A stretch of DNA of 63,475 nt, filler included, from Hausera hauseri (Eukaryota): assembly GCA_046269625.1 (NCBI GenBank). It is 12 parts of 12 records of this genome, joined end to end, with 100 filler letters (N's around TTAATTAATTAA, not from the genome) between each part and the next. Parts side by side here need not be neighbours in the genome. Positions count along the whole stretch, not along the records: positions 58,924 to 63,475 come from JBJURY010530787.1; 11 more parts are not named here. One strand, given 5' to 3'. Under the pieces are notes generated by a model. It was not told the DNA's origin and searched no databases. It saw only the letters and a list, made by a program, of their open reading frames with translations. Below are positions 19,365 through 63,475 of the stretch, one piece after another. Position 1 is the stretch's first letter. Each line of letters begins with the position of its first letter. The position numbers and the translations under genes were made by a program.

Positions 19365-19785
19365 ACCAAAATCAATAATTTTGACAGATGCACCTCGAAG
19401 AATTCTTACGTTCTTTTTCGTATATTCATTATACTCCATATCATAAACAACACTCACTAATAAAACGTTCTCTGGTTTGAAATCAGTGTGATACAACTTT
19501 AAACTGTATAAAATATTAACAACTTTGCAATTCTGAAAATTCATAAATCTAATGTGACGCATCGGATAACCATCACAATGGTTATTCTTTAAAAAATTAA
19601 ATACGTTTAGACCGAGTAAACGAAAAACAATTGAAATATGTCCATGATAATTGAAAGAATCGAAGGTAAAATTCACTAACTTTTTTCCAGAGGGCAGATT
19701 TCTTTATCAAATCAAGAACTTTAATTTCTAAAATAGCAGTCTTTCTGCACTTTTCAACGGTAACATTTTGTAACATTTTACATAA
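19365..19785 (-). pseudogene. CLK: CLK/LAMMER (Doa-like) kinase fragment, subdomains ~II-VII
   Basis: VEKCRKTAILEIKVL, FNYHGHISIVFRLLGLNVFNFLK, HTDFKPEN, VKIIDFG; frameshifted; similarity stops at DFG. Confidence 0.85.
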
Positions 19786-24960: not shown

Positions 24961-24989
24961 CGAACCTTGATCGTATATCAATATTATTA

Positions 24990-25815
24990 TTTAAAAATTT
25001 ACGAATAGAATTATTATTATGGAAATTGGAATTATTTATTAAGATCTTTAAGATTGACCTCCGCATTCCTGTCGAATGCGCGGTAGTCGAAATGCTATTG
25101 ACATATCCAGAAATGTCGGTTCGGGTTCTTTGTCCAAACCAAATCGAAATCCACTTTAAACAGAGTCGAGTCGGTTTCTTCCGAGTCAATGAGACCGGTA
25201 AAAATATTGAAGATGTCATTTTCAACTTGTTTTTTATCCCTTTTAATATTACAATTGAAGTCCGATTGAACTTCTTTATTTTCCGACAATTTCAACAAAA
25301 CCTCCAAAGCCAAATCTGGATAACCAATTTTCAAATAAATATAAGCCGTTCAAAAGAGTCGCCTTTCCATTTTGTTCAGTTTTTGTTGTTTATTAATTTC
25401 TTTCGAGCACTGATGCATTTGCTTTTTAATCAGGGAATGTTTTTTTCAGAAAATTGCAAAACATAAACACAGCGGTTTCATTGAGCATTGATTTGGAAAC
25501 CGTTGATTCGGTAGTACATTTGACACCGATTTCCAGAAGAGTTTCGAATGATTTCATGACCTGCCCCATCATCCAGAAACCCATGCTACAGATAAAGGGA
25601 TCGGGGCTGTTGACAGCATTATACTTAATGATGGACTCATAATGTTTGTCCTCCTTCGATACATGGATATCGTACAATTTTCAATGCTATCTCCTCCTCA
25701 AATTCTTTTTCGTCGCTAAAATAGACCCCATTGGCATTGCCATTTGCGTCCCATTTCATATTTCGCTGCATACTCTGAACTTCCATTGTGTTTGAAAAAT
25801 CAAAGATATTGATAA
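24990..25815 (-). pseudogene. DMXL: DMXL / Rabconnectin-3 alpha gene fragment
   Basis: DPFICSMGFWMMGQVMKSFETLL, VFMFCNFLK, GYPDLALEVLLKL and ILKILI match motifs recalled from DMXL1/2 in the same order; frameshifted. Confidence 0.65.
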
Positions 25816-26521
25816 ACTGATAAAATACAGATAATCAAATCACAGAAACAATGTCAGTAATGTTTCTGTCTGACACCAATTTATTATCTGAACTGTTTGA
25901 TAAATATCCAAATAAATAAAGCACAAATTCTAAAAAATAAGATCAGACAATCTAAAAAGGAAAATGGTTGCTAAAATTGTATTCAAATCAAATTACAAAT
26001 TGTCTCTCAAAACTCATTTAAATTATTTAAACAAGGAGAAAAATTTAGAAGTGTATTGTTCAGTAAACAGAGCATGAATATATAGTACATACTGACACGA
26101 ATACAATTACATAAAGTGGATCTCGAAATCATGTGTGCATAATAATAGGAAATTATTGATGCCTACATAATAAATCTCAAAAAAATGAATACAAGGAGAT
26201 TTTCTGAAATTATACAGTTTTTTATGGACATTTTTATCACGTGATTTTCTGCAACAGTTCTCTTAAAATATTTCACAGCACGAGCTAGAAATAAAAGTCT
26301 TCACTTGACCCGCTAACAATTCCAAATATAAATTTATCTTTTAAAAAACAGAATTTTGTTGATTAACAAAATTCATCAAATAAAAATATGCATCTGAGAT
26401 GAAGAAAAATCGACATAGGAATTTTAAAATCTGCTTTAACATTTGAAAAGTCGAATAATGAAAATATCTGAATTTTCCAAACCTTGATTCGTTTCTCTGG
26501 ATGGTAAAAAATATGAAACCA

Positions 26522-27076
26522 CTAGGAATCGTTATTCGACATTCGATAGGAAATCATTCCGATGTACTGCTGTTGCCACACATTGTTAGTTTCTACAGTG
26601 TTTTCTTTCAAATCCGCTTCGGGAACATTTACAACCTCATCTTGACTGCTACATCGTGGTGGAGGAGGTGGTGATGATGCAAAAGTTATTGAACCTAAAT
26701 CATCATTGTATTCGTCATCGGGGCAATTCAACTGGAGAACTTCGGAACCGTCTTCAACTTTTACCATTCGGTTGAAAGCAACTTTTGAACTCCGGTTACT
26801 CTTGTAATGTTGAGAAGTTTTGAAAATAGTTTCAAACTTTAAATTGGATTTTGCTGAAAACAATTTTGCTACGTTCTTGTTTGTACGACCTGATGTTACA
26901 GTTGTGTTGTCTGATAATTCTGGGTCATTTGAAGTATCACTGCTTCTTGTTGATGTTAAGTCATTTATTAAAGGTAGATGCTGTACATAGGATATTTTAT
27001 TGCTCAAATCTTTCAAATGTTGTAGTTCTGACTTTGTGATGTTTGTTTCGGGATCGGAATTGTTTAATGATGACAT
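26522..27076 (-). CDS. Unassigned Ser/Asn-rich ORF, probably a host gene fragment
   Basis: 184-aa open frame in AT-rich DNA; PPPPPR motif; no recognised domain. Confidence 0.35.
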   Translation of the reverse strand: MSSLNNSDPETNITKSELQHLKDLSNKISYVQHLPLINDLTSTRSSDTSNDPELSDNTTVTSGRTNKNVAKLFSAKSNLKFETIFKTSQHYKSNRSSKVAFNRMVKVEDGSEVLQLNCPDDEYNDDLGSITFASSPPPPPRCSSQDEVVNVPEADLKENTVETNNVWQQQYIGMISYRMSNNDS

Positions 27077-27284
27077 AGAATCTGATTCTCTAACATTAAT
27101 TCTAACAGTACCTTTATTTGTATGACCGTCATGAGTATCATGAGAGGAAGCGTTTATATCGCAGTGTTTTAGCAGCTAACTCCAAAGACTTCGAATTTTA
27201 ATTACTCATGATTCACAAACATTTTCTTTCGACATTCTCTTAGACTTTCGATTTGCCCAATTTGCTGCATTCGGTAACTGTGAT

Positions 27285-27715
27285 CAGGGACAATTGTTTT
27301 GATAGATTCCAAAACAGTATTTTCAGAAGTGCTGACAAATAAGTAAGGCATGATTCATCAAATAATATATTCAGCAGTTTGGTTGGTTCCAAAACCATGT
27401 CGGAATAAATGAGAACGTTCAAAATCGTAATAATTTCCAAATGAATAATGAACGTTGTTTCAATTGGTGGTACTTCAACGTATACCAATATTATGTTTTG
27501 ATGCGCTTACAGAGTATGGAATAGTTATCGTCTAAAATTGACTGACTTTGTTTTTGATATACTATTTGGACAAATGACAAAAATGAAACAGAGAATTGTA
27601 AAATTGTTTTAAGAATATTGAATTTCTTGCTAAATCGAATCACAATCAACATTTTCCTTCAATTCATCTGAACGAATAAGTAAAATTTCATTGAAGTTCA
27701 GGGGATTCTTGATCA
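27285..27715 (-). pseudogene. DYM: Dymeclin-like gene fragment
   Basis: VEVPPIETTFIIHLEIITILNVLI...CLTYLSALLKILFWNLSKQ resembles the recalled dymeclin segment DVPLLDITYEISVEAI...CLPYTSKLVKTLLYNFIRQ. Confidence 0.55.
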
Positions 27716-27731
27716 TTTCTCCCACACAATC

Positions 27732-27838
27732 TTGGTGGGAGATCGGAGCCTGCCTATGTGCCCGACGTACCGGCTGCGGAAAACCCGGCCGTGCTCAACC
27801 AAATGGGCCATAGGGCGCCGGCTGCTGACGGCACCACA
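27732..27838 (-). mobile_element. Short 3' LTR of the contig-5 Gypsy element
   Basis: Polypurine tract GGAGGGGGTGG followed by TGTGGTG; GC-rich ~107 bp ending at a CACCA-like end. Confidence 0.6.
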
Positions 27839-28459
27839 CCACCCCCTCCACCGTGGCAAAGTTAAAACTATAAAGAGTAAAAGGATAGAAAGAAAAAATC
27901 GCAGAACAAAAAGTGTTTGTCAGTTGAGCTTAGTGTGAATAAGACGTTGAATACCTTCGGCTGATTTTTCCCTGCTATGCTTCCTGAATGTGACTCTGCG
28001 TGTTGTGTGTTTATGTAATGTGTTTGTTTGGAGAGATTGAGATTGGAGAAAAAATTGGTAGATTTTTGTAAGGGTGTTGTGTCGTGTGAAGATAAGTCGG
28101 AATAAAGAGAAGAAAATGACGAAGAAGGAAGAGGGATTGGTGAAGACGGATGGTTAAAGGCATTGAAAAGAGTGTTAGAAGACGAAAGAGTGATGAAAGG
28201 TGTAGTAACGGATAAAGGAAGAGAGTAAAGAGTTGAAGTAGAGATTGGAATAGTGTTTAGTGGAAGAGTGGAAGAAAAAGATGATACAGAAGGAGTGATA
28301 GAAATAGAAGTAGAATGTGTAAAAATGAAGGAACAGGACTAGGCGCAGAAAAGAAAGGTGAAAATGATGTAGCAATAAATGTAGGAATACCAGGGAGTGG
28401 AGGAGTGAAAAGGGAGGCTGACGTGCCGGTTGGTAAGGTGTTGTCGACAAAGAATACGG

Positions 28460-30374
28460 GCTTTAAGTTGGTAATGTGTACTGTAAGATGTTTATCATCT
28501 TTGGAGATGATGGCGTTATGCGAGTGTAGCTATATCGGTTGGTAGGGCCCCATGTACCGCGGCTGGAAACCGCAAGGCGCTTAATTCTTTAGCCATACGA
28601 ATTTAGCCGTATACAAATCTTCGGGTAAGTATGTTTTGTCTTTGTGAACTAGCCTGCAGAACGAATCTTTGCTGACCTCGACAAAGTGATTTTGCGCCGC
28701 CCGTATCGTCTCATCCGTGGGAGTGTCGTCTAGAGCGGATAGTTCGAATAATGGTCGGACAACAGCTTCTAATAAGGCTTCAGTAGCTGAGCATCCTGTA
28801 GAAGTGGAAGGAGTGTTCCGCCAGCCGAGCAGAACGAACGGAAGAAAATTCGTTCAACTACTGTTGGACTCTGCGAGAATTCTTAGTGACGTTTTCAATG
28901 TTCGATGGAAACGTTCTAGAAAGTCATTCGATTGGGGTGATAAGGCACAGTACGTATGTAATGGATCCCCAATCGGTTAACAAGGGATTTGAACAAGTTG
29001 GATTCGAACCATGGACTCTGGTCTTTAATGATGAACCGAGGTGATCCCAACGTGCTAATCCATGTACGAATGAAAACGTCAGCTATGGTGTTGATGTTTG
29101 TGCTCCGCAGAGGGGCGGCTTCTGGCCATCGCGAGGAACGGTCCATCATGGTGAGGATGAATTGATGACCGTTGTCTGGAGGAAGAGGGCCAACGATATC
29201 GATATGCACAGGTTCGAAATGCGATGTACAGGGAAAGTGAAATAGTGGTGGCTTTAAGTGCTTAGCTGTTTTGTATTTTTGACAAGCCACACACACTTTA
29301 ACCCATGCTGCACATCAGAACGCATTGATGGCCATATTACTTGTCGATAGTGTAAACGAAAAGTGGCTTTAGCACCGGGATGGTGTAGCGAATGCACGTT
29401 GTGAAAAGCTTGCCTTTGCAATGATGGTGCTAGAATTATTAAGGAATGGCCTGATTTAGAAGTGTCTAAAGCCACGCCGTCAACGACTGTGCAGGACTTA
29501 AAAGAATTAAGCGTGTCCTGAGGTGGCTGGTTCTGTTGAAGTTGATCTTGCGTAAAAATCGGTTAAAAATTAATCGAACTAACCTACTTAGATAAAAAAT
29601 CAGCAACCAAATTGTCAACCCCGTTAATGTGTTTAATATCGAAGTTAAATGTCGAAAAGTATGATATTTGACGTTCTTGGCGTGTGGAAGGGTGTTTCAT
29701 GGCCATGATGTTATGTAAGGGTTTGTGATCGGTTTGTACAGTAAAATGGCGGGCGACAAGTAGGTGGGCGAAATGCTTTAAAGCGAGAACGATGGCCAAT
29801 AGTTCTCGATCGAACGTTGAATATCTGGTTTCAGAAGATATTAGCTTACGAGAGAAAAATTCTAGTGGTTGATTTTCTCTCTTGTAGATCTGGTGGAGTA
29901 CAGCGCCTACTGCCGTGGTTGACGCGTCTGTAGTAAGCATGAGTTCTGCATCAGGCTTGGGGAAAGCTAAAAAATCGACGGTTTTGATTCCTTCACGTAG
30001 CTTGTCAAATTTGTCAACTAATTCAGGTGTCCACTGGATTGGCTGATGCTTTTTGTCGCCGCTTAGGTGTGCGAATATTGATGTCAATTCAAAGCAATAT
30101 GGTACGTATTTATGTACAAAGTGTAGTGTGCCAAGGAAACTGCGCATTTCGGTGGTTGTACGTGGCAACTGGATATTTTTGAGGGCTTCGACTCGGTATG
30201 ATTGTGGAGAATGACCGTCTGGTGTAATAACGTGGCATAAAAGTTAATCCGCTTTTTGAAGAAATGGCATTTGTCGAAATTGACTTGGATATTATGGTGG
30301 TTAAGACGTTGGAATATTGCGTGAAGGTGTTCCTCGTGTTGTTTGGCCGAAGATGAAACGACGAGAATATCATC
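28460..30374 (-). pseudogene. pol: Gypsy pol: RT C-terminus, RNase H and integrase, disrupted
   Basis: LTTDAS, YSTFDRELLA, TDHKPL, HxxxHPG...CxxC, VHIDIVGPLP, GPY module. Confidence 0.95.
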
Positions 30375-41600: not shown

Positions 41601-44235
41601 CCATTTCTTTACCAACAGTACATGCACTTTTAATATTTCAACTCCACACACATTTTCTATGTAAATACTATTAGTATAACATACAGTTGAAAATTTTTAG
41701 CAAAAATTATATAACTAATAAAGTTATATAACCGGGACTCCAAAGTCCCGACGGTAAAGTACAACATCCGAATCTACACAGGTCACACTCATGCCAAGAG
41801 CCAGTCACAGTTCAATAAGCAAGCTGCTAACACCACTATCAGTCTCTAACTGTCGTCAACTTTATATCGGCAACAGTTCATCTTGCTGTTGCAACACCGG
41901 TGAACTTTACAAAAGCTGCATGTGGAGTATGGCCTCGACTCGCGTTCAGTTTGGAACACTGAGCACAGCGACCCCTGTCCTCACCAAACACTGGCCAGTG
42001 ACTGCCTCTGTTTGATGTAGCAGCTTCCGGCAATGACCGCTTTCGATTCTTTCCCTGAACAGTTTCTGACGATCGAAACGCAATCAGGCAATGGAATTCG
42101 TTCCACCAGATCACAGTAAACAGTGTATGAATTTATCAGGATGATATCAGTCATGCCAAAACAGTCTATACCATCATTTGTTTGACTTTCTGTTGAAGCC
42201 ATACAGAGAGCGCAGCATGTCGGCATGATCTACGCCACACATGTTCCTGTTCTATGCTGCAATGGACTCTGGCTGGCTCACTTCAGTGGTGCTGCCATCT
42301 TTTAGCCGCCGTGTTGTCTTGCCACATGCAGTACCATGTGCACTTGACAGCATATGCACAACTCGGTTGTCTTTCCACTTCAGGAACACCACTCCTTTAT
42401 CTGACACGCCAGTCAGAGTCCCCACGTTTGAGCTGTTTGTCTTCAACCAGCTTTGGTAGGTGTCTCCTTCCTGCTCGTACCGTGCAGCATTCATAGATTC
42501 CATATTCTTCTAGGTAGTTCAACAAAGGGACCGAGGAGAAATAATTATCAAAATACAGCATGTGGCCCTTATCCTGGATTGATGCCGACATATTCACGAT
42601 GACTTGCCCACCAAGTCCAATGTCGGCAGGAGCATCAGTAACCAGAGACTTGCCCTGGTACACATCAAATTGATGAATGTAGCCATTGGTCTCAGCTCTG
42701 CACCAAATTTTGTAGCCTCTCTTTATCGGCTTCATTGGATTGTACTGTTTGATTGAGCTGCGACCTTTGAAAAGTATCATCGCCTCGTCAATGGACTGCA
42801 CTTGAGTTGCAGCAAAAAGTCGCTGAAACTGAGCATTCAACTCAGTTATAAGTGGTCGTAGCTTGTAGAGACGATCAGGGTTTTCTTTACTCCAGCTGCT
42901 GTTATCGGCGACATGCAAGGTGTGGATGATCTCCGAAAATCTATTTCTTGACATGGCCTTTTTCACGCAATTGACACCAAGATCAGTCTGAGTACTCCAA
43001 TAGAGAGTATAGGATGGGAGGCAGTGGTATCCCATCAGTAAATTGATTCCGAAAAAAACAGCTCCTCTTTCTGCAAAGATTGCAGTGGCTTTTATCCAAA
43101 TTTCAGTTGTCTCCAAACTGAATACAAATAGGACTGTTCAACAATATTATTTACAATGTTATCAGACAGAAACATCGTAAAATAGTCGATCTGTGTGCTA
43201 CAGGCAGCGAATTCCTCCTTAGCAGGCCCAGATGGTTCATCCAGAAACACAATCTTCTTGGTTTGCAGCTCTTTCTTACACCACTTTGTCGAACCTAAAT
43301 CCACGTGCCGAGATGTGCTTGATGTACTGATCTCATCGTCAACATCTTCCGGTTCAGAATCAGGCTGGACTTCTGTATCGGTGGATGCAGAAGAATCACT
43401 CTCATCATCAACAGGAGTATCATCTGCAGGATCTGGTATTTTAACTGGTATTGCCTGATGCTTGCGACTATAAAATTACGATGTAGAAAAGGCCTTTTTA
43501 CCTGCATGAAAAAAACTGCAAAATTGATAAACGTCGAGATTCAACTTGTTCATATGTTGGTTACTGATACACATCATTTTGTCTCTCATTCAGCCTACTG
43601 GGTGGGGTACTACCATAGGATTATGATTAGAGTGGGGTTCAATGAGTAGGTTTTATGAGCTGGCAAGACGAATGGTCGTCATATTTATCAGGCAATTATC
43701 GGTATCAGTACCTCAAATGACTGTATTTTGGATTTTTAACAAAGACTGATTCAAATTAAATCTAAATTCAATAATTTACTACTGACAGGGAACGGTATTT
43801 CATATCAAATACACAATGCTAGGTTGATAAGGAACTCTTACGATGAAACGACGTACTTTGCCAACGGGACGTCCTAGTCCCATGCACTTAAAAGCATTTT
43901 TCAACACTAACTCAACATCTAGTCATGTAATCTCATCAATCGTATCAATATCAATAAATAATCAACAAATTCGAATACGAATCTTAGTGCAAAATGAAGC
44001 TTTATCACTATAAATAACAATTTACAAACCATTCGTGATTCAGGAAGTAAACACCGTGGTTGACAGGAAAATCAGTCGTAAATACGAAATCAAAACAGGG
44101 TGCGTTCAATAAATCACATTCCTCCAATTGGGGCCACGAAGTCCCGCTGGTAAAGTGACCGTACAGAAATTCAGATCGATTTTTTTAATCGCAATTTACC
44201 ACTGGGACTTTGAAGTCCCGCAGGTAAAGAAATGG
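41601..44235 (-). mobile_element. Full-length piggyBac transposon with an inactivated transposase
   Basis: TTAA TSD at 41597-41600 and 44236-44239; perfect 13-bp TIR CCATTTCTTTACC. Confidence 0.95.
41830..43507 (-). pseudogene. piggyBac transposase (DDD), frameshifted
   Basis: MSRNRF, SIDEAM, KPIKRGYKIW, YFDNYFSS, WKDNRVV, GVDHAD and a Cys-rich C-terminus. Confidence 0.93.
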
Positions 44236-46410: not shown

Positions 46411-46659
46411 TTTGAAATAATGATAGATTAATGCAAGTAATTGTCGCACTGTATTAATTTGTTAATCAAATTTCAAATTTATTGATTATATTGATCTTAC
46501 TTGGTCTTAACCTATATAGTAATTACTTAGTTTTACTTGGCCTTATCCTATATCCCACATTACTTGTTCAATAAGACAACAACACGATATTTCTATACAA
46601 GATTTATTACAAACAAAAATAACAACGACTAACAAAATGTACATATTTACAGTGCCACA

Positions 46660-49600
46660 TATCAATGATGTAGTGTGTGGATTCCATCGCTTAGGATCTG
46701 CCGCTTATCGTCCATCCAATCTAGGCTTTTCTTCTATAAGGTTACAGTTTATATGTTATAAGCCCTAGATTGTATCCGTCTCATCTCTGATATGATGTGA
46801 GTCTGCTCCTGCAGAACTCTCACATAGTCACTGAAGCCAACCTACTTGGTCAATGTAGCCCTTTGAACCCATTTTGCCCGCTTCTTTACTTGGCCACATA
46901 CGTCTAGAGCATACATTTTAGATCTGAGAGCCACAAATCTCGAGACGACTGCCCCATTCACCTCATCTTTGAATTTCCCTAGGACCTTTTTGTTGGCAAT
47001 TGAATAGTTGGGATGATTCTTCGTATAGTCCGAGTTATCCATATGCTTTGCTAACTGGGCAAAGTTTTCATAAATATTATCTGTATGGATCTGATAGATG
47101 AAACTATCAGTATCAATACACATCAGCTGCTTGGACTTGAACTTGGGGATCATGATGTCGTAGTGGAAATGATACATCAGGGTCTTTGACAGGTCGAGGA
47201 TTGCCATACCCACATATATAGGCTTGCTGAATACCAAGGATATTTTCAGCATAAGAATGCTGACGAAGTTCTCTATATCATGCTACTATGGGAGTTAGGC
47301 TTGGCAATAAGCTTCTTTGCGCGCTTCCAGTCAGAGTCCAGTTCGATGTTGATCCTGTTGCAAATATTCTCAATGGTCTTACCAAAGACCGAGTTGTTGT
47401 AAAGCTTGAACTGGTCCTTCTCAAAATCGTTCTTGGCATTTGTCCTAAGCTTGGTATTGAGATCTATGTAGGGCTGCAGCCACATGGACTGGCTGAAATG
47501 CAGGGTTCTACGGATCTTAGTAATACGAAGTCCATGTCTAACTGCTTGCTGGAGATTAATGTAGTGAACTACATACCTCTCCCTATTACCCAGATGGCAG
47601 AGCAGATTCTTATGCTTTCCATGAGGAGGAGGCCTGCTCTCAGAGAGGAAAGGCAGCTGTTGATGCCTTGCTTGGATGAAAGCCGGATATTCCATATCCA
47701 CCTCCATTATATAGCCCGTATCTTCAGTGGGATCCAGGTCCAATATAGGGATGTTTTCAGGATTCTCGACCCATTTAAAGTTATCATATGGCAATGGGGT
47801 ACTCATTGCGTATCCATACAAGTTGTTGACATCGAGGTATAATATATATGAGGATTCCTTGGATGGATCACACTGGGCCATATACCTGTTGTTGGCCTCA
47901 CTATACCGGTGAATGATCTGGCATATTCCGCATGTAATACCTCTCTCGATCATAAGGAGCATATCATAATCCTTAATGAACTGCTGCCTAATACCTGTAT
48001 ATCTCAGCATTGCTGCCCTACTCATCCCTGGCGTCCTAAAGAAATGAACCGGATCCAAAGCATGACTCTTTATTGTAACATCCCTGAAGCTCTCAAAGAC
48101 ATTTGTCAGCAGCATCCCGTCCATCTTGAGGTATATGTCGCTGTATTCCCCTAATATTTGGCATTGGAATGCATGCCAGACGTTCTGGGCATGCTGATAG
48201 TCAGCATCACTGATATCGCAATCAGAGAGGATACTGTAAAATTCCTTTTTGTACGGCAATGAGGTCTCATCCAGTGTTTCCCATGAGGTTATGTAGTTAT
48301 AAGGAAACACACCTTTCCTCTTGACGAGGTGATATGCTATAGGGAAGAACCGCTTCGTCCCCTTGAGTTCTTCTGCAGGGAGGTTCTTCACTAAACTATC
48401 CAGTGACGAACTCAAAAAGCGGAAGCTGTCTATGAATCGAAGTCTAATGCGGCCCACATGCTTCGTGAAGGTGATATATTTTTCCTCACTATTGGGAATG
48501 ACATCAATGTTCCCATCAATGTTGCCCAGTTCCCGAACAATGAAGTGGGAATCATAGCCACTGAAATTGTGGAACACTACAAGCACATATGTGCATGTTT
48601 TTCAACGCAGATTGCAGTTGCTGCATGCTGCATCTCGATATTTGCCTGTAAAATGACAATTCTGCCTGACTTTATGATTATCCTTGTTGAAGGACTTGTC
48701 GCACAAGTAACATGTTGTTGTCTTGCGTCATTCTTCTTTTTGTTGCTTCAACATTCTCATATTATCTTTATGCTGCTGAAGCAGCTTTTCAAGCCTATGA
48801 GCCATGTCTTCAAGTCGTTTCATGAAATGTACTGCTGCACCTGAACCCCTGAATAGAAACGGTTCACTTTCCAGTCCTTTGGCATACATGCAATACAATG
48901 AGAGTTCATGATATTAATATGCCGTTGTGTTGCTATGTTGAGGACTGGGAGTGCAGCTGTGAATTGGCCGGAGAATAGATAACTATTGGGACCTTGATCT
49001 TCTTCTCGAACTCTTTGAATTAAATATAGTCCCCCTTGGGAAAATCTGGCCTTATACAGTAATTGTTGCTGCAGTACATTTTGTGCTCTGCAAGCTTGTC
49101 CACGGCCTCATCGCCGCTAAAATGGGAAAAGCATCGTTTACATATTTCAATTTTTCCTTATGTTTCGTAATTTGTGATCCCACTAGACGCTCAAAGTTCT
49201 TGATCCAAACATAATGTTTCTTTTCTCAATCGTTTAGTAGGAGCAGATCCCTATGATCTTCCAATTCAGTATCATATATATGCAGGCGATAAAGTTTGTC
49301 CTCCTCATCCAATCCAATGATTTTGATGGATATGTTGTTGATTCGGCTAAACTTCTTAATTTCATCTAAGGATGGAGCGAATGTGATTCATTGGAAGTAA
49401 TAGTTGTGCTTCAGATCATTATATAGCCAAACTCGATCTGCTGTATGTTTTTGATCCGGTAAAAGTTTACATAAAATGGCATACATGAAACACATGCTGT
49501 CATTATTATTGACATTGACACATGCTTTTTAGCGATCCAATCCGCAAGCTGAATATAAGAACTGCCCGGCATTGGAGAATACTTGTGAACATACACAAGC

Positions 49601-49941: not shown

Positions 49942-50949
49942 NNNNNNNNNNNNNNNNNNNNNNNNNNNNNNNNNNNNNNNNNNNNTTAATTAATTAANNN
50001 NNNNNNNNNNNNNNNNNNNNNNNNNNNNNNNNNNNNNNNNNAGCAATACATGTTTTACCAGATAATATTAAAGTTTTTGATCCACTATGGATGCATTATC
50101 CATCATCATTGGTGGCGAAATTGGTACGTATGCGGCAACCTGCCACATGCAATGATGTTATGTATCATGATCCATTAACATTTCTATGTGGGAATTATTG
50201 TGTGGACTGGCTTAAACGACAACGGATATAAAATGTTATAAACGTTGTCATTATTGTGTTAAGAAATGTTGTTGAAATAACGTCTGTCTTCTTTATTAAC
50301 TTGGAGTGATTTGTGGATAATAATAATGAATACACAAAAGGAGCTGTGTATAATGTCAGTGGATAATATGTTTCATCTACTACATTATGTATTTGCGTAA
50401 GTGAATTTTGAATATTGTAAAAGTAACATATGCTATTCTAGACCTACAGTACATTGTTACACAAACAGTGCACAAGCAACAAGTGCCTATTTGACGGAAC
50501 ATCATTACAAACTGATGTGGGAAGAATATAATACCCATTTTTGCAGAGATAGTCTCATGCTAGACGTTGAGACATGATGCCACGTTCTACGTCAAGGGTC
50601 ATGCTGATGGGCGGAAGAAGATATTTACCAGTATATTTTTAGATTTATAAAGATGTACATATGAATACGGCAAATTGGTAACTATACCAAAGAACATTAC
50701 ATGTATTTATTGTAAACATGGTTTACGTTGTGCTTATAAGAAGTGTTTAGCTTTATGCCAAAATTATGTAATGAAATAAATGCTTTATGAAAATACTTGT
50801 ACAGTTTTACTTGACCTATATAATATTTAGTTACTTGGCCTTATTCAATATCTCTCATTACTTAATCAAAAACACGATCTTTTATACGATTTACTGATAC
50901 AACACTACAATACGTCGTAAAAAATACACAACGACAATGATATTTACAT

Positions 50950-53135
50950 ATTCACATTAATGCAGCATGCCCGTGAGGTATTGTGTTGATTCCGTTATCC
51001 AGGATGCGTTTCTTGTTATTGTACCATTCCAGGCTCTTATTCTGCAGTGTTACTGTTTAGATCTCATGAGCCCTAGACGGGATCCTTCGCATTTCGGACA
51101 TTACGTGAGTCTGCTCCTGCAGAACTTTCACATAATCCGCAAAAGTGATTTTCTTGGCTAAAGTCGCCCTTAACCTCTTTAGCTCGCTTCTTTACTTGAC
51201 CACATACATCGATGGCATACATTTTACTCCGCAGCTTTAAAAATCGCGCGATGACTGCCCCATTCACCTTGTCTTTAAATTTCCCAAGGACTTTTTTGTT
51301 GGTTATTGAATAGTTGGGATTCTCCTTCGGGTAATCAGACGTATCCATATGCTGAGATAATTGAGCGAAGTCTGCAAAGATGTCCTCTGTATGGATAGAA
51401 TAGATAAAGTGTCCATGTATATTAGCTGTATAGACTGGAATATTGGGACCATGATGTCGTAATTAAAGTCGTACATCAAGGTCTTTTACTGAACTTGAGC
51501 GATGTTTTCAGCATATGGATGCTGACCAGGTTCGCTACATATATAGTGCTGCTGTGGAAGTTCGGCTTGGCTATCAGCTACTTTGCCCGCTTCCACTGGC
51601 ACACCAACTCTATGTTGATCCTGTTCCGGATGTTCTCCATCGTTTTGTCAGAAACGCTGTTGTTATACAGCTTTTTGAAGTCGTTTTGGCATTACCCCGC
51701 AGCTTCGAATTGAGGTCTATGTACGGCTGCAGTCACTTGGACTGGCTGAACCGCATGGCCCGATGAATCTTCGTAATGCGGAGTCCATTTCTGACCGCTT
51801 GCTGGAGATTTACGTAGTGGACTACATACCTCTTCCTCCTGTCCAGATAGCAGAGCAGCTTTTGATGTTTCCCATGAGGCGGAGGCTTGCTCTTAGGAAG
51901 GAAAGTCGGTTGTTCGTGCCTTTTGTGGGTGAAAGCTGGATATTCAACATCTACCTCCAATATGTAGCCCGCATCTCCAATGGGATCCAGATCCAGTAAA
52001 GGGATGTCTTCGGGATGTTCGACCCACTTGAATTCATCATATGGCAATGGGATGCTCATTGCCCATTCATATAAGTTGTTGGCATCTAGGTAGGCAATAT
52101 ATGAAGATGCCTTTGCTGAGTAATATTCAACCATATACTTGTTGTTGGCCTCACTATACCGGTAAATGGTCTCATTCGATCACGAGGATCATGTCGTAAT
52201 CCTTTAAGATCTGTAGCTTAATACCACTATATCGCAGCATTGCTGCCCAGCTCATCCCTGCAGCTGTAAAGAAATGAACCGGATCCAATACGTGGCTCTT
52301 TATGGTAACATCCCTGAAGCCCTCAGAAACATTCGTCAGCAGCAGCAGCAGCAGCAGCAGCCGCAGCACATCCGTGAGTAGATATATGACACTGTATTTC
52401 CCAATTTTCCTGCAATGGAATGCATGCCAGATTTTCTGCGCGTGCTGACAGTCCGCATCGCTATATGGCTGTCCGACAGCTTGTTATAAAACCCTGCTTG
52501 TCCGGCAATGAGGTCTCATCCAGTGATCCCCATGAGGTTATATAGTCATAGGGAAACACTTCTTTCCTCTTGACAATGTCAAATATAGTGGCGAAGAACC
52601 GCTTTGACTCCTTGAGTTCTTCTGCAGAGAGGTTCTTCATTAAGCTGCCAATTGAAGACGACATGAAAGGGGAACTGTCTACGAAGCGGAGCCTGATTTT
52701 CCCGACATGCTTTGTAAATGTGACGTACTTCTTCTCATTGTTGGGAATCACATCAATGTTACCCTCATTCTTGCGTAGTTCCCGAACAATGAAGTGGGAA
52801 TCATAGCCACTGAGATTATGGAACATCACAGGCACATATGTACATGTTTTACAACAAAGATTGCAGTTGTTGCATGCCGCACCTTGATATATGCCTGTAA
52901 AATGGCAGTGATCCCTGACTTTCAAATTCTCCTTAGTGAATGATTTGAAGGACAAGTATAATGCTGTTGCCTTGCGCCATTCTTCTTCCTACTTCGTCAT
53001 GCTCATGTTATACTTATGCTGTTGCAACATATCTTCAATTGTATGAGCCATGTCTTCAAGTCGCTTTATAAAATGCGCTGCTGAGCCTGGATCCATGAAT
53101 AAATATGGCACACTGTCCAGTCCTTTGGCATACAG
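50950..53135 (-). pseudogene. polB: Polinton/Maverick-type protein-primed DNA polymerase, copy 2
   Basis: VRDHCHFTG..GAACNNCNL (endonuclease-VII-like insert), FHNLSGYD, YLDANNLY, LGKFKD, LRSKMY; many frameshifts. Confidence 0.93.
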
Positions 53136-54251: not shown

Positions 54252-55898
54252 TCATTTGTACATTATGTTTGCATAATTCAGTGCTTCTTTCGCCGAACAA
54301 AGAATGTTTAAGGTAATCGTTTTCAAAGTTTTGAATATCTCTTTGGCTGTATTTTTTAGTATGTAAGATCTCTGAGATGCGGAATCTATGATTGCTCGAG
54401 CCTCACGTTTTTTACCGTTACCTCTTAGAATAACTGTCAAGGTTTGCAATATAACATTAGGTGTTTTAACGACATTTGCGAGAGCCTGATCTCCCTCTGG
54501 ATTATTTTCAACTAACTCTGTATTTTTCTTATTGTGGTGACATGTGTTTATTTGAGATATGCTTCTGCATAAAAGTATATGATGTTTTTTCCCACAGGCT
54601 AAACATCCTGCTTTCAGATTACACTTCTTTATTTGATGACCAAATTTCAAACAAAGGAAACAGCAGCCTGATTTCTTGATGATAGTTTCTCGTTCACTCA
54701 GTGGCATATTTCTCGCGTTCCCACAGTCCCAAGAATTATGAAAACCGGAACAAAATATACATTGTTTTTGACTATGAGTAGATGTAAACAATTCAGCTGC
54801 ACTGTATACTGGAACATGTTTGCCAGACTTCCATTTGCTATTATTAATTTTGTTTTCTACATGTACATTAGCGTTTTGTCTGTTAGCCAGATTTCCCGAC
54901 TTGTTTCGATCAAAAGTCTGTGAAGCAAGGGATATTCGCTCTTCCCCTTCCACCTCATCTTGAAGAAATTCGAGTAAAGAGTCTAAATCAGTCTTCTCAT
55001 TTGTTTTTGCAATTTCTGAATCGTCAAAAGATTCTGAGTTTATATCTCTCGATCGGCGATTTACACTCCGATAACGTTCCCACGCTCTAAGCGTGTCGTC
55101 GGGTAACGAAGATTCTACAAGGGGGAATAACATAGCGGCATATTTTTCTCTAGTAACCCCCAGTACTTCCAGAGCACGTAGTTTCGATTCTAATTCATCA
55201 TATAATTTTCTTAACGATCTCCCAAGTGTACCTTGTTTTTGAAGTACCAACACTAATAAATCTCTTACATAAACTTGAATCAACAGTTCATCTTTCCCAA
55301 ACCGAGCTTGGAGTTGTTTTACGGCTTTCTCATAACTTTCGCCACTTGGCGGAAAACTTTTAATTAATTCTTCAGCAGAGGAACCCTTCTCCATTGCTTG
55401 GGAGAGATACGCAAATTTATCATGTTTGTCAATACTAACATCTTTATCTATCTTTTTAAACTGTCCCCAAAAACCGAGCCAGTTCTTTAAATTACCATCA
55501 AATGTGGGTAACTTTATTTTGGGATAACGCAACAATGTATTTGAAATCGATGGAACGTTTGCGTTTTCACTATGCTGAGTAAAACTATTTTTATCGGAAA
55601 GTAATTTTCTTAACTTGTGTTCTAATACTCTCCACCTGTCTATATATTTTTCTGACTCATCAATTTCTTCCTCTAAAATTTTCTCATCCTCAACTGTCTC
55701 GTAAAGTTTTTGTTTAACATTATCTTCGGCGGCAATCATTAGTTTCGATTTACCCTCTATAATGCTCAACTCTCGAATTTTGTCTTCATCGGTTAATTCA
55801 CTTTCTTTATTATCGAACTGATTACAAGCTCGAGTAAAAACTCGGCGATGTTGTGTGCGAATTGATTTTAAAGTTTCCATCATAAAAATAATATTCAA
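54252..55898 (-). CDS. gag: BEL/Pao gag plus start of the protease
   Basis: PKIKLPTFDG...FWGQF, three zinc knuckles (CIFC..H...C, CFLC...H....C, CLAC...HH..LC), RAIIDSASQRSYI. Confidence 0.92.
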   Translation of the reverse strand: MNIIFMMETLKSIRTQHRRVFTRACNQFDNKESELTDEDKIRELSIIEGKSKLMIAAEDNVKQKLYETVEDEKILEEEIDESEKYIDRWRVLEHKLRKLLSDKNSFTQHSENANVPSISNTLLRYPKIKLPTFDGNLKNWLGFWGQFKKIDKDVSIDKHDKFAYLSQAMEKGSSAEELIKSFPPSGESYEKAVKQLQARFGKDELLIQVYVRDLLVLVLQKQGTLGRSLRKLYDELESKLRALEVLGVTREKYAAMLFPLVESSLPDDTLRAWERYRSVNRRSRDINSESFDDSEIAKTNEKTDLDSLLEFLQDEVEGEERISLASQTFDRNKSGNLANRQNANVHVENKINNSKWKSGKHVPVYSAAELFTSTHSQKQCIFCSGFHNSWDCGNARNMPLSERETIIKKSGCCFLCLKFGHQIKKCNLKAGCLACGKKHHILLCRSISQINTCHHNKKNTELVENNPEGDQALANVVKTPNVILQTLTVILRGNGKKREARAIIDSASQRSYILKNTAKEIFKTLKTITLNILCSAKEALNYANIMYK

Positions 55899-55919
55899 AT
55901 AGTTGCTTACCTAAGCTAC

Positions 55920-55943
55920 TTCAATCCTGTTATGCGGACGCCA
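55920..55943 (-). promoter_or_regulatory. BEL/Pao primer binding site
   Basis: TGGCGTCCGCATAACAGGA 2 nt after the LTR end and just upstream of gag. Confidence 0.6.
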
Positions 55944-55945
55944 GT

Positions 55946-56290
55946 TGACACGAATTCTACGAAAACGAAAATCCCGTAGTTGAAGGTTCGATTGAAATTA
56001 TGATGGACGAAGTTACGCAATTTAGAAATAAACATTCATTTATTACGCACACATAGACTCACACATAGAATACATCTAATCTCAAAATTTATCTCTTAGC
56101 ACACACAACTTTGTGCTATACACTCATAGTATTATTAAAACTCAAAATATCGAAAAAAAAGGAATACAAACAAAACAAAAAACTCTTCTGTTGCCAAACG
56201 CAACGCCAAAACTTACCTCTTTTTTAAAGGAAAAAAAAGAGAACATAGATAATATCAATGTAGAGGCAACACAGCACTCATTTTGTGACA
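55946..56290 (-). mobile_element. BEL/Pao LTR (345 bp)
   Basis: TGTCAC...GTGTCA ends, preceded by PPT AGGTGGGAGTA and followed by the PBS; contains AATAAA. Confidence 0.85.
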
Positions 56291-56412
56291 TACTCCCACC
56301 TAAGTTAACGAAAAGAATAACATGATAAAAGTTAACTTATGAACACAAACAACAGGTCTCAAAAAAGGAGTCACTACATTGTACAATAATTGTCTAAAAA
56401 ATTAGAATGTTC

Positions 56413-57435
56413 TTATAGTGATAGTTTCTCAGGTGCTTTAACAACATGACCATGTCGCGTAATCATAGGCTTCTCAATGATTTTCTCTGCATTGGGTTTT
56501 CTCTCTTTTATTTCAGCATGATCGTGAAAGTCTCTCTTCTTTCTCACAGTATCTTTTACCTCGTTGAGCACTGCCTCTGGAAGGGTTTCAATAGTCGAGA
56601 GTTCTAAAGGATATAATCTTTGTACGGCTCTGAGCACCTCTCCTCCTTGAGTCTTCACTCTGGCACGTCGTACGATACCATCAGCTCCAGGTAGCACCTC
56701 AATTATTCTGCCAAGAGGCCAAGACAATCTCTTTTTATCTTCATCTCCGATGAGTACTATATCTCCTTGTTTCAAGGGAGTAAATGTTTCATTTCTTCGT
56801 CTCGAGCACAATGATCCCAAATATTCTCGTCGAAATCTCACTCGAAATGCATCTCTGACCGTTTGGATGTAGCGTAATCTACGTCGTAAATAGTTTGGAT
56901 TTTGTGTCATTCTCAGGTTGGGTACAGTGTTACTTTTGATATCTTTGAGAAAATCAGCTGGAGTAAGAGCAGTAAGGCTTGAATCGGAAGACACTGTCGT
57001 TAACGGTCTGTCATTCATAATAGCTTCACAGTTACATAGAGACGTGAGCATTTCCTCATAATTCATACAAGCTCTTCTTAATGTTCTTTTCAAGACGCCT
57101 TTCATCAAGCCTACTAAGCGCTCCCACCATCCACCCCACCATGGTGCACTGGGCGGTATAAATTTCCAAATTACGTATTCTTTTCTCATCTTTCTTGTTA
57201 CTTCATCTTCACAAGTAACGTCTTCAGCAGCAGGCCACGATTCAGCGGGTTGACAGAGCCACTCTGGGCCCTCCCACCATTTCATGTTACCAGGAACAAA
57301 TCGCCACGCTTCTTTATCTGTTAAGTTCAAAATTTCTTGTACTCGGTTATGTACAAATGTTCCCCAAGTATCTTCTCTTCTTATCCAAGCTAGGACCGTG
57401 GTCGAATCAGTCCAAAAATACACATGTTTAACCTT
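56413..57435 (-). pseudogene. pol: BEL/Pao RNase H end and integrase with internal deletions
   Basis: FWTDSTTVLAWI, WWEGPEWL, WKFIPPSAPWWGGWWERLV, NDRPLT, WPLGRI...GADG..R, LYPLEL. Confidence 0.92.
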
Positions 57436-58624
57436 TTGCTTACGGCTGGGATGAATCTGTCCCAGAAATATACTTCCGAAAAATGCGGCGTTGGGATGGA
57501 TACGTCCCAGACATTTCCTTCCCCCCTCTCTGTGGGTGTGCATTTCATCCGGTCAATCGCCCGCAGGTGCATTGTATCAGAGCATTGTATTGCAGCTGCG
57601 GATTATCTGCTGAGTTTGAGGGAGAATATGAAAAGGGGAAAAAAGGAGGGAAAAGGTCAAAGCGCCAAATGAAAGGGGAAATGCGGTGGACGTTTGTACA
57701 TAAGTAGAAAATTAGCTACTGTGATTCTGTTACACTCTATTCGTTATTGGTGCAGATATTTTTTTTTCGGTTTGGAATTTATAACCTGTATTTCTAAATA
57801 CATTTTTAGAAAAAAATAAATGAAGAAGGTGTGTTTTTTGTCAGGTTTGGGGACAAGAAAAGAGAACATCTTTCTTGTGCAAAAAGTGCAATGTCGGACT
57901 TTGTGTAAAAGACTGTTTTAGGGACTTTCACTGTCAAAACAGTTTAAATTGAAGAACTTTAGTGGTATATTGAAGTCGATTTCATTTAATACAATTTTTC
58001 ATTTCAAATTTAAACAAATTTCAATTTTTAGATATTTTGTTTTTGTCTTTGTTGTAAGAAATTTGTATTACAATATTTTATGTCTGTATAAAATGCTTTA
58101 AATTAAAAAAAAATTGCGCAAAATCTGTGTTGCGTAATTAGCACCATAAAACCACTTCTTTGCTCAAATTCAGAAACCATTTCATAGAAAAAAAAATCTC
58201 TTTTTGTGGAACACCAGAAACCTCTTCAGGGAAAAGTACACCCAATGATGAAGAAGCATGTTTCCTCATAGTAAGCATATTAATCTGAGGGTGTTACTAA
58301 AGAAAAAAAAAATCTTCATGCACTTAAAAACCCATATATTTTGCCAAATAACTTACAAATGAAACTTTCCATTTATATATAATATAATCTAGACCATGCA
58401 CGTAACCGGAAAGGGGATAAGGTTATAATTCCTCCCCCATATACTTTGGATATGCGCTGGTAAATATAGAAAAACCTTTATTTTAAAATTCGAGCGCAAT
58501 TTCCCAGTGAAAGCCCATCATTTACACCCCCCCCCATTCAGGACCACGCCAACCTAGCGGTGCAATTTACGCACCGCACCCGGGCGGCAGCGGGTGTGAA
58601 GGGTGGTGGGAGGAAAATGATTTG

Positions 58625-58812: not shown

Positions 58813-58980
58813 AGGAAAGGAGGNNNNNNNNNNNNNNNNNNNNNNNNNNNNNNNNNNNNNNNNNNNNTTAATTAATTAANNNNNNNNNNNNNNNNNNNNN
58901 NNNNNNNNNNNNNNNNNNNNNNNTGCCTTTGGTGCTGTTCTCACCGTATCGGAGTCCGAACTTTGAATGATATACTCATC

Positions 58981-59763
58981 TCACCACTTTAATTGTTTGT
59001 AGATAGATTGGTAACACTGCGCTAAGGCAGTGCTTCGGAGTGAGAAGCCCTTCGTGTCATAGAACTTCCGGGCTAATTCTTTGTAGGTATTGGTCGATAA
59101 CTAATACCGGCGGACAACATCCTTGTGATATAAGATATCACGTACTCCAGCTATCCGTCGGATTGGACACTTGAAGTGGTTTATAACCATTTCAACCACG
59201 TCGGCTCCAATAACAATCTTGTCAGTTATTACTTCAGTCACTTTTCGGTAGAGGTCAACTTGATCAATTTGGTTATTAATGTTAAACTCGGTGAGGCCTG
59301 TTATGTGCATATCGAAATTGTTAATACGCTGCCTCGGGGTGATGATTTCATAGAGTAAAGTGTCTCCATTCAAGGTTAGAACCGAAGCTTCAGTGGGTTG
59401 AAGCTGATTCCACTGGTCATAGGCCAAGTTGACGGCTGCTATGACCATGTCTTTATCCGTAAATCTGTCCAACCTTCTAAAAGGGATGCCTTTATACTTG
59501 ACGTAATCGGGTTCTGGGAGATTGAAACACCTTCCTTCTGGAAAGCTTGGGTAGAATTTCTCATGTTTAATTATTTCCAATGCTAATATTACACGATTTG
59601 TACACGAACGGATTTTGAATGTACTGTCTTTTAAGAAGGTATGATCAAAAGCTATACCATGTTCGGGGTCGACATTGATTAAATCTCCTTTAATGGATGT
59701 CTTTCTATCTGTAGTTGTATTTGAATTTGGCCCACAACTCCATATAAATTCATTGAATGAAAT
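58981..59763 (-). pseudogene. Accessory ORF with a DEDDh (ISG20/REX4-like) exonuclease fold; one internal stop at 59101
   Basis: EASVLTLNGDTLLYEIITPRQRINNFDMHITGLT...DLYRKVTEVITDKIVIG...YKELARKFY follows the REX/ISG20 pattern; the frame is open from ~59763. Confidence 0.65.
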
Positions 59764-60290
59764 CTATCAGGTAGAATAATAATATCTGTCAAAAGAAAGG
59801 AAGTGGCTTTGGTTATTTGCGTTATGGCCAGAGATCGATTGGCCATGCTATACCCTTTTACATCATTAGGGATTTGCTGAGTCTGAGCATAGTTCAAACT
59901 AATCATGTGGTCATTGTGAGACACAGTATTGGTTGGACGGGTTGGCATTGATTATGTGATTCTTTACATCGCTATACCAGTGTTTGGAACGGTTGATAGA
60001 TTGTATCTGATGAATCTTTGCAGCTGAGACTGTAAAAATAAGAGTCAATACGTCATTTATTACTATACTTAGACACAACACAACGGTTACCAAACAACTC
60101 ATGGAGGTAATCGTTGTGGATTTACTACAATTATTTCTAAAGTGCAAGATAACTCGATGTTGTTTGGTTATCCTTTACTTAGGGTTGCGTATATTGCAAT
60201 CCCTGACATTAATCGTCATCTGGGGTTGTCCGTATCTAACGGGTTCGTTAGATAACGCATATCAATTCTGACCCAGCTTCTTTGTTTGAA

Positions 60291-61595
60291 TCACCAGTAT
60301 AAGATTCTACTCACTTTTATCAATATTACTATTAAGATTACAGGGGTTAGTGATCCTATGCACATTATTTCTAATCGTGAATATTTATACACAGCTCGTG
60401 CTAGTTTTGTAGTCATCTTATTGCTAATTATGTTGGTTTTATGAGATACATTTATCTCATAACTTACTCTGGTGATTGCTGTCACTACCTTTGTAGAAGT
60501 TACCTTATCTTTATCATTCCGTAATTGTAAAATTATCGTATATCGAGTATTAGGTTCTAGATCTGCACATGATACCACTAAATACATCCGGAGTTATGAC
60601 TCCCTTGGCTACCACTATCTCTTGTTTCTTGCAGCTGAATCTAATTTTTACAAAATCTAAATCTGGTCTGACAGAAATAATAAATGCGGTTGGGGCTGCT
60701 ACTATAGTGACATTATCCCATATGGATCGCTTTGTACGATAATATGAAGCGTAGGGCTTAATTAAGATAGTCATCTCCGTTTTATTAGTCGAGGACTGGA
60801 CAGATGACGCCATAATCCTTTTTGGTATATCATCGTACTCTTTCTGGTTTTTATATCGTATGAACATCGTCGGCCCTTTTCTCTGCATTCTATTCGTGAC
60901 AAAGTGTATTTTATATTGTATATTTTGCCTCTTGTTACATTACAGCAAACTTGTTGTTGTTCATTTGTTATTTCAAATTTTGGTAATCTTTGTTTGCCTC
61001 CTGTTTCTTTTATGGATATTGTTATCCATCGGATATATTCCAATTCTATCATATTCCTAATTTCGAGACAACTTCCACTTTTAAATCCCATTGGTCTTAT
61101 TATTAGCTGGGCGAGTATTATTTCATCTAGTAATGTTTCATTCATTTCATGTTTATTGGGAACTCGTATATACTTGTGAAATTTGGTATATAGATTGTAA
61201 TAATAGTTTTCTTTTTTCTTTATGAGTGTAAGGTACACTCCATGTGTTCCTAAAGTATCTATCAGACATCGCGTTTCATTTGTAGATGAATGGAGCATAC
61301 AGTCACTATATGGCTCATGAGTATTCCTCTTATAACCGTAGACTGGGGTTGTTTGGATCCTTATAAAATAGTCACCAGGCATTCGTCTTGTAGTATATCA
61401 GGTAATGCATTTTCGGCCTTTCATGGAGTACGTTATTTGGTATTTTAAGCTTTTTAACCATAGGTCCTCGTTTATGGCCGTGGCATGTCGTATCTTTGCT
61501 CGTTCGACTTCTTGTTCCGTCATCTGTCCGGCTACTTGGGGAAGCAAAAAGATAATCGTTAATAATATGCTCTTTATTAGCCAATACCTTCTATA
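60291..61595 (-). pseudogene. Env-like type-I membrane glycoprotein downstream of Gypsy pol
   Basis: Signal-like WLIKSILLTIIFLLPQVAG, N-glycosylation sequons, RTKR furin site (60727-60738), DLEPNTRYTI FN3-like motif, TM IMCIGSLTPVILIVILI; one stop and two frameshifts. Confidence 0.6.
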
Positions 61596-63475
61596 GATTG
61601 AGTTTCTTTCTCTACCTTTTCAGTAATACTTAGTACGATTTCCTTTTCGCCTTTCCTTAGCTCACTTTTTCGGGCCGCTGGTTTACATCTGTTAACGTAG
61701 ACCTTCACAGACGTATTATTTTTCTTCAAACAGATGTTTTGTAGATCTACTTTCTCCACTTTATACGACCCTTTATATGGTCTATCCAACTTACACGTTT
61801 TACCCTTTTTAATTGCCGGAGAATATAACATAACTTGGTCGCCTATCTTAATTTTTGGTTGCTTGGTCTTCTTGTCGCAATATCTTTTATATTTTGATTT
61901 ATAGTCCTCTTGATTTTTGCAAGTCGTTTTGTAGGCTAATTAAAGGCGTTCCTGCATTAATTGTTTATAATCTTCCACTTCCATTAAGTGAGACAGGTCT
62001 CACATTAAAGTCTAGGCCAATTGGTAATCTTGCATCCCCTAAATACATTAGATAAAAGGGTATCTCTTTAGTGGCTTCGTGAACTGACGTTCGATTTACG
62101 AACACACATGCATTAACATATTTGTCCCAATAGTCTTGTCTAGTATTAACTACTGTTTGTAATTTTCCTTTCAAATCTGCAATATGCCTCTCAACCAACC
62201 CGTTATTTTCTGGGTGTCCTGGCGTAGATCGTAACTTCAATATCTTCAAAATATCGTATATAGACTGCATTACAGTTCCAATTAAATTTGATGCTTGGTC
62301 GGTCAGAATAATTCTTGGGGATCCGTAATTAAACAATAGTAATTCGCCAAACCTAAAAATCGGCGTAATTCTTTAACTGTAGTTGGTTTTGGGAAGTCTC
62401 TTATTTTTCCCAATAATTTGTCTTGAGGTTTTACGCCGTGTTTTTCTACTCTATGTCCAAGAAAATCTACTTCCGCTTGAGCAAATGAACATTTTTTCGG
62501 GTTTATCTTCAGACCCATGATTTCACACCTATTGAAGAGGTCTTGCAAATCTTTTAGATGTTGTTGGAAATTTGGTGATGCTATTATTACATCATCAATA
62601 TATACCATGGCGTGTGGACCGTCCAACAGCAGAAGTTCCGTTCCTCTCTGGAATGTTGGTGGTCCATTTTTTAGTCCGAATGGCATCCTATTAAACTCCC
62701 ATAATCCTTCACCGATTGAAAAGGTTGTTTTTGGTTTATCCTCTTCTTTCACCTCCACTTGCCAATAGCCTTTCTGTAAATCTATCGTTGAGAATATGGT
62801 CGATCCGTAAAGCCTGTCTAGTATTTCGTCAATTCTTGGCAATGGGTATGTATCCGTTTCAGTTATTTCATTTAACGCTCAACAATCTATGCAAAATCTC
62901 ATGGTTCCATCCTTCTTTTTAACCATTACTACAAGAGCCGTCCAGGGGGAACAGCTTGGTCGGATGATATTGTTTTCCCTCATTTCCTTTATTATCTTTC
63001 ATGCTTCTTGTTTTGTGTAATACGCTAATCGATACGGTCTCTTCTTGATTGGGTTATCCTGTCTTTCTTTTAATTTAATAGTGTGTTGTATTACATTCAT
63101 TGTACCCAAATCGTATTCATTCTGTGCGAATCGGTCGTTATTCTTTTGTAATAATTCGATTAGCATTCTCTTCTCTTCCTCAGTTAAAATTTCACAATTC
63201 TGTAACTTGTCATGCCAGTTAATATTGTTTATTCTATTTTTCCCTCTATCCTTGCCTGGTTCCTTTTTTAACTTTTCCATCATTAACTTTTCTATCTTGT
63301 CTATGTCTGGCGTTGTCGAGCATGTTTCTTGTTTTATTATCCCTTCACTGGTGGTTACTTCTCCCAGTCTGGTATTCTTTCGTAATCGTCTTTCCTTACC
63401 TGCCGTATTACAAATTCGCAGGTGGATCTTTCCTTCTCTCACTTTATCTACATGAGGGGCGATTAAAACTTCATA
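61577..63475 (-). pseudogene. pol: Gypsy pol (RT and integrase; RNase H deleted)
   Basis: IDLQKGYWQV, RMPFGLKN, YIDDVII, RFLGLANYY, then directly YGSPRIILTDQ, HPENNGLVER and a GPY-like module. Confidence 0.95.

Follow-up and report, generated by a model that had tools for sequence, protein, structure and literature searches.

A disrupted Ty3/gypsy accessory gene in Hausera hauseri that is predicted to pair an AlkB-like barrel with an ISG20-like exonuclease fold lacking its catalytic residues

In bdelloid rotifers, the Juno, Vesta and Terminon elements carry an ORF3 that is RNase D-like, of the DEDDy type and intact in its residues, according to the available portion of their description (PMC5408684). 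That portion also presents Maelstrom and EXD1 as inactive DEDD derivatives of the piRNA pathway that are said to keep RNA binding (PMC5408684). In planarians, the giant gypsy elements Burro and GYPSM1 have been reported (PMC6431247, available text), and in ISG20L2 five catalytic residues (D, E, D, H, D) are each essential, as stated in the accessible part of the corresponding study (PMC10899777).

The gene described here, from Hausera hauseri, shares with the rotifer ORF3 its nature as a DEDD-superfamily nuclease gene placed after pol as an extra ORF; the acidic motif of the rotifer protein may read DEED, as it does in many relatives of the window protein. However, whereas the rotifer proteins are described in the portion cited above as intact RNase D-like DEDDy enzymes, this gene is predicted to encode an ISG20/REX4-like DEDDh domain joined to an AlkB-like domain, and it is dead in this copy and in other lineages. 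No RNase D-like DEDDy motif was found in the family, in which the spacing is of the DEDDh type and the best matches are ISG20-type proteins. Maelstrom and EXD1 are likewise catalytically inactive DEDD derivatives, but they are presented there as host silencing factors and not as element genes, and this analysis found no sequence or structure link to them.

The window, the whole stretch of 63,475 nucleotides that was analysed (assembly GCA_046269625.1), consists of 12 separate pieces joined by eleven artificial N-spacers. The last piece (58924-63475) carries the gene on the minus strand and is separated from an unrelated contig by the spacer at 58824-58923, so that a 3' LTR would be out of view here. 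A degenerate Ty3/gypsy pol occupies 62336-63433 on the minus strand and is cut by the end of the window; it comprises the region before the reverse transcriptase (RT) and the RT itself (RVT_1 E 2.6e-28), which is 58.6% identical over 239 aa to the RT of a related locus, L003, whereas the other gypsy pols in the window reach 27-32% identity in long matches. An integrase remnant follows at 61661-62351 (minus strand), where a tblastn alignment of the L003 polyprotein breaks off at residue 1918 and resumes at residue 2309. About 390 residues, corresponding to RNase H and the front of the integrase, are thus missing from this copy, which keeps the Ty3/gypsy order of RT and integrase with RNase H deleted; the full order of RT, RNase H and integrase is present in L003. 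The element piece is covered in all of its 30 bins by contigs of two public runs (10,940 and 1,208 contigs), one of which, X1, is possibly the source of the window itself. These contigs are mostly 80-95% alike, and coverage of every bin by so many of them indicates a multicopy family.

The original prediction described a single ORF at 58981-60110, a reading that does not hold for the window copy, in which two frame changes and two stops interrupt the gene. This is apparent from P0002, an uninterrupted natural relative of 447 aa that is 55% identical to the window protein over 244 aa. P0002 matches the window in three ungapped blocks lying in two frames (60006-59920, 59915-59715 and 59715-58930, with 72%, 58% and 53% identity, respectively), the frame changes fall near 59920 and 59715, and in-frame stops stand at 59103 and 58983. 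Nor does the gene end at 58981, as had been assumed: similarity to P0002 passes that stop and continues to 58930, equivalent to residue 401 of 447, so that the start of a C-terminal tail (58924-58971, minus strand) is cut by the end of the piece at 58924. The window gene is a defunct copy of an accessory gene that belongs to a multicopy family of Ty3/gypsy elements.

The C-terminal part of the protein, at 58972-59451 on the minus strand, corresponds in the P0002 model to an ISG20/REX4-like DEDDh exonuclease fold without catalytic residues, and both stops lie in it. The predicted ISG20/REX4 spacing proved correct in this part, and so did the predicted losses: the ExoI D-x-E reads A-V-N, with Ala and Asn in place of the DEDDh Asp and Glu in the alignment (59428-59436, minus strand), and the ExoIII H...D reads L...L. 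When scored on the catalytic columns defined for ISG20L2 in the accessible part of its study (PMC10899777), both the window protein and P0002 read A, N, V/M, L and L, with none of the five kept; the ExoII column is ambiguous in both, since an acidic residue stands one position away. By sequence alone, the window protein matched neither Pfam RNase_T nor a PDB nuclease, and P0002 gave nothing relevant against Pfam. The match to RNase_T and the DEDD fold put forward by the original prediction therefore failed for the window sequence taken alone and emerged through relatives and structure. RNase_T is matched by 15 of 26 relatives, 13 of them above its cut-off, and the best matches of the family profile are ISG20L2 (E 8.7e-24), ISG20 and SDN1. 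The AlphaFold model of P0002 (pLDDT 79.5) has two domains, of which residues 228-387 superpose on ISG20 with Z 16.7 and rmsd 2.5 over 156 aligned residues and show the DnaQ-like alpha-beta-alpha fold; Foldseek agrees with the fold matches of both domains. The likeness to ISG20, ISG20L2 and REX4 thus lies in the fold, with Z 16.7 and 16.2, and in the way the motifs are spaced, in addition to the profile E-value, while the lack of all five catalytic residues, the extra N-terminal domain and the encoding by an element set the window protein and P0002 apart (PMC10899777, available part). The relatives and the predicted structure therefore support the capture of an ISG20-like DEDDh domain, in line with the suggestion of a captured nuclease.

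All full-length members of the family add an N-terminal domain, which had escaped the earlier description. In the window it lies at 59559-60006 (minus strand), a stretch that includes the blocks 72% and 58% identical to P0002 as well as both frame changes, and is predicted from the P0002 model to be an AlkB/2OG-oxygenase-like double-stranded beta-helix without a conserved metal triad. Residues 37-192 of this model match ALKBH6 with Z 13.2 and rmsd 3.0 over 150 aligned residues, and also ALKBH7 and AlkB. Similarly, the N-domain of the L003 protein, folded alone with pLDDT 90.5, gave among 48,161 chains Z 12.3 for Ofd2 (rmsd 2.5, 129 aligned) and Z 12.2 for ALKBH6; the best cupin scored Z 10.6 over 97 aligned residues, which places cupins within about 2 Z of the AlkB proteins. 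Foldseek ranked cupins first by E-value and Ofd2 highest by TM-score. Matches in BFVD include viral replicase and AlkB entries, and the ESM Atlas, queried with the N-domain of P0036, returned no more than sub-threshold leads.

The AlkB-family 2OG-Fe(II) dioxygenases hold iron by an HxD/E...H triad and bind 2OG through an arginine. The likeness to this family, which includes domains of plant RNA virus replicases, is one of predicted fold over 130-150 residues with 5-13% identity; the differences are that no triad is conserved here and that cupins follow close behind. The N-domain of P0002 contains no HxD/E, none is conserved across 26 rows of the alignment, and the single conserved His column (22 of 26 rows) is occupied by Tyr in P0002. 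Since no triad is conserved, the modelled barrel appears to be metal-less throughout the family, and both domains look dead in the window lineage. Descent of this domain from AlkB is favoured by the models but not proven, because cupins score close and come first in the Foldseek ranking.

Among 1.84 billion representatives, the search returned 27 matches, namely P0002 and 26 proteins at 24-32% identity, and the resulting family of about 30 proteins is bimodal in catalytic state. Six cluster mates and two short fragments were removed beforehand, and of the 31 rows that were scored 21 retain the complete set of five catalytic residues. Nine rows, including the window protein and P0002, keep at most one, and one further, truncated row keeps the three residues that it covers. 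These shares may be biased, since the search started from a dead member, and P0035 and the L003 ORF probably represent the same protein entered in two rows. The PR, D and IPN motifs peculiar to the family are conserved irrespective of catalytic state: in the eight dead rows that were tabulated, the PR and D columns are conserved in 8/8, and the G-x-R columns in 8/8 and 7/8. A tree of 25 rows, built without the five catalytic columns and without the window copy, four partial proteins and one duplicate, requires four changes of catalytic state (3-5 across bootstraps); a topology that unites the dead members in one clade is not significantly worse (p-AU 0.12), in a test weakened by long branches. 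Scans of viral contigs with P0002 and with alignment A3 found no locus.

Whether the acidic residues were lost by a shared pseudo-enzyme or by this copy alone had been posed as the deciding point, and the loss is shared. P0002, at 55% identity to the window protein, has the same dead ExoI and ExoIII in an unbroken frame, and none of the 12 variants listed among contigs of the two runs over 59380-59480 creates an acidic residue. In addition, nine of these 12 variants are synonymous against an expected fraction of 0.19-0.29 (P 3e-5 to 1e-3), in a test that spans about 13 codons, counts contigs of shared ancestry and includes X1. The dead motif of an intact relative together with the synonymous excess indicates selection and not decay, and the gene is therefore very probably a selected pseudo-nuclease accessory gene.

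The surroundings of the gene were examined in a context scan with six intact-site members, which yielded seven loci, six of them from one assembly and all with intact-site members; the only dead member seen inside an element is the window copy, whose LTR lies beyond the end of the contig. In L003, a single open frame of 2,978 residues (2-8935) extends from a fusion protein to a C-terminal membrane protein, in the order fusion protein, protease, RT, RNase H, integrase and membrane protein, followed by a short ORF and the exonuclease gene. The fusion protein is of the Monjiviricetes type (E 8e-84) and stands in frame before the protease. The frame contains two protease-like stretches, its C-terminal membrane protein has no Pfam match, and a dUTPase-like region before the RT was recognized by eye only, Pfam being silent. 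In L005 and L007, RING and TRAF/MATH genes lie upstream of the exonuclease gene. L007 (1-6730) and L005 (54-4655) line up as many as eight accessory genes, comprising RING and TRAF/MATH genes, short ORFs that fit no clear family, and the exonuclease, and in most of them the ATG is immediately preceded by a splice-acceptor-like motif.

An LTR-like start is found at most 200 nt past the stop of the gene in five of the seven loci, and none was found after the gene in L002 and L003. Downstream of the gene, L004 continues through an LTR-like stretch and a primer site into gag. At the expected polypurine tract, before the LTR-like start, L004 (3021-3040) and the matching sites of L005, L006 and L007 have a run of C, whereas an ordinary purine tract occupies this position in L001. 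The placement of the gene inside the element, as originally predicted, is thus borne out in the relatives, where it stands after pol and before the 3' LTR, while in the window the piece ends inside the gene. With respect to the available description of Burro and GYPSM1, on which alone the comparison was made, the related loci resemble the layout of these giant Ty3/gypsy elements in the mononegavirus-type fusion protein in frame before pol (L003) and in the MATH/TRAF and RING genes (L005, L007), but no DEDD or AlkB gene is listed for Burro in that text (PMC6431247). For the window copy, the part of the element where such genes would stand falls outside the window.

Taken together, the locus is best explained as a dead copy of a gene whose product, predicted to be a metal-less AlkB-like barrel fused to a catalytically dead ISG20-like fold, likely binds RNA instead of cutting it, an account that we hold to be somewhat better than an even bet. 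Binding is preferred to cutting because the cutting residues are absent and the lineage was apparently kept by selection; more generally, catalysis can go while surfaces stay, so that the selected core is likely to be binding. The product would be translated from a spliced subgenomic RNA and would be soluble, cytosolic or nuclear. Its ancestor may have trimmed element RNA or small RNAs as an active 3'-5' exonuclease, an activity that most lineages would have retained, and catalysis may have been lost more than once with the shared binding surfaces retained. The product could then protect against RNA surveillance by the host, either as a shield or as a decoy, a role that is favoured because of the RING and TRAF genes beside it. 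This RNA-binding role in counter-defence, which we infer computationally, is tentative and falls a little short of an even chance. Counting against RNA binding, the dead domain has little net positive charge in the window lineage (+2 and 0), and the RNA-contact arginine of ISG20L2 (PMC10899777, accessible part) aligns by eye with an acidic residue in the window protein and most relatives.

The same low net charge would suit a protein that binds a host protein and not RNA; its target would be a restriction nuclease, an Argonaute/PIWI protein or a ubiquitin-ligase partner, for which it would act as decoy or adaptor. Conservation of the PR, D and IPN motifs regardless of catalytic state, and the RING and TRAF neighbours, are consistent with this reading. 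However, the best structural matches of both folds are proteins that handle nucleic acid, and the full nuclease site persists in 21 of the 31 rows, which makes binding of a host protein unlikely. A helper role in replication, through packaging of RNA or processing of the 3' end of element RNA or cDNA, with the dead versions acting as chaperones only and no anti-defence function, has been raised for the rotifer DEDDy ORF3s as well, in the available text (PMC5408684), and the gene is a regular part of the relatives near the 3' LTR. Nevertheless, a needed processing step should not tolerate the loss of catalysis in nine of 31 rows. To our knowledge, moreover, most gypsy elements replicate without such an exonuclease gene, and this role is judged rather improbable. 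The RNA-binding account could also be extended to a scheme in which the metal-less AlkB fold reads methylated RNA and passes it to the ISG20-type nuclease, several lineages having independently become double-dead decoys that shield element RNA from host silencing, and in which the gene belongs to a series of accessory genes that are each expressed from a separate spliced RNA, for counter-defence in giant Burro-like gypsy elements; as a whole, this extension is just as doubtful.

A different fate, in which the product would be secreted or anchored in a membrane as a partner of the membrane protein encoded upstream, was evoked by the signal-like stretch with which the ORF had been predicted to begin, and an in-frame upstream hydrophobic stretch is indeed present in both the window and P0002. 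Such a start is not a feature of the family: an N-terminal hydrophobic segment occurs in two of 36 proteins, 34 lack it, and one of the two, P0030, is a longer start call whose cluster representative has no such segment. Furthermore, family similarity begins after the hydrophobic stretch, which overlies a T-rich tract ending in CAG at 60030-60045 (minus strand), shortly before the point where this similarity sets in. The tract is a likely 3' splice acceptor and, of the four TTNYAG sites located below 61700, the one richest in pyrimidines. In the related loci, TTNYAG stands 0-3 nt before an early ATG in 16 of 24 ORFs against 24 of 877 ATGs overall, counts that are not independent, L004-L007 being related; among the exonuclease ORFs four of seven have the motif in this place and three do not, and in the window copy no ATG follows the tract directly. 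The rarity of hydrophobic N-termini and the T-rich CAG tract suggest that an acceptor tract, translated in frame, probably accounts for the putative signal peptide, and a membrane-associated partner is very improbable.

Upstream of the gene, at 60291-61586 (minus strand), a three-frame translation reveals a broken membrane-protein ORF with a signal-like start and a C-terminal hydrophobic segment. As noted originally, the exonuclease-like gene lies downstream of it on the same strand and no LTR separates them; the gene is also downstream of the gypsy pol, and the LTR search found none on the whole piece (58924-63475). The designation of this ORF as env-like is not confirmed by searches with its longest open piece, which has no meaningful Pfam match and no homologue. 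In position the ORF corresponds to the membrane protein that follows integrase in L003, but its similarity to that protein (23.9 bits, not significant) is within the noise of shuffled sequences (maximum 26.2 bits), so that an FN3-like reading made by eye is not upheld and the env identity stays putative.

That the missing catalytic residues reflect neutral decay of a once-active nuclease is scarcely credible, since this reading, to which the four breaks in the window copy and the large deletion in its pol lend some appeal, is largely refuted by the same dead motif in the intact P0002 and by the synonymous excess over the ExoI motif.

Other pieces of the window contain unrelated features. A protein-kinase fragment at 19080-19703 (minus strand; Pkinase E 1.7e-7) is either a host gene or a captured piece. 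Two copies of a region with a type B DNA polymerase, 70-82% alike and on separate pieces (46497-48888 and 50831-53134; DNA_pol_B_2 E 3.8e-23), are likely Maverick/Polinton relics. A DDE_Tnp_1_7 transposase at 42400-43137 (minus strand) is presumably of the piggyBac type, and the DUF1759/DUF5641 ORFs at 54255-57552 (minus strand) are taken by us to be of the Bel/Pao type. The pieces 12867-17889 and 24133-30374 carry a direct repeat at both ends (98 nt, 99% and 77 nt, 100%, respectively), probably representing assembly overlaps of collapsed LTR elements.

In the literature consulted, no accessory gene combining AlkB-like and DEDDh domains was described; the original Burro paper, the Repbase entries and the supplements lay beyond its scope and may list such a gene. 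PMC13524379 makes no mention of DEDD, accessory, TRAF or Burro, and PMC13238120 none of exonuclease or AlkB. Extra nuclease genes have already been described in the LTR retrotransposons of rotifers, where their function is not known. The present family extends this picture by a further class of nuclease, by its fusion to an AlkB-like domain, and by naturally occurring members, with and without an intact catalytic site, that share their surfaces. Such a series makes it testable whether accessory genes of retrotransposons act against host RNA defence, and whether they do so by catalysis or by binding.
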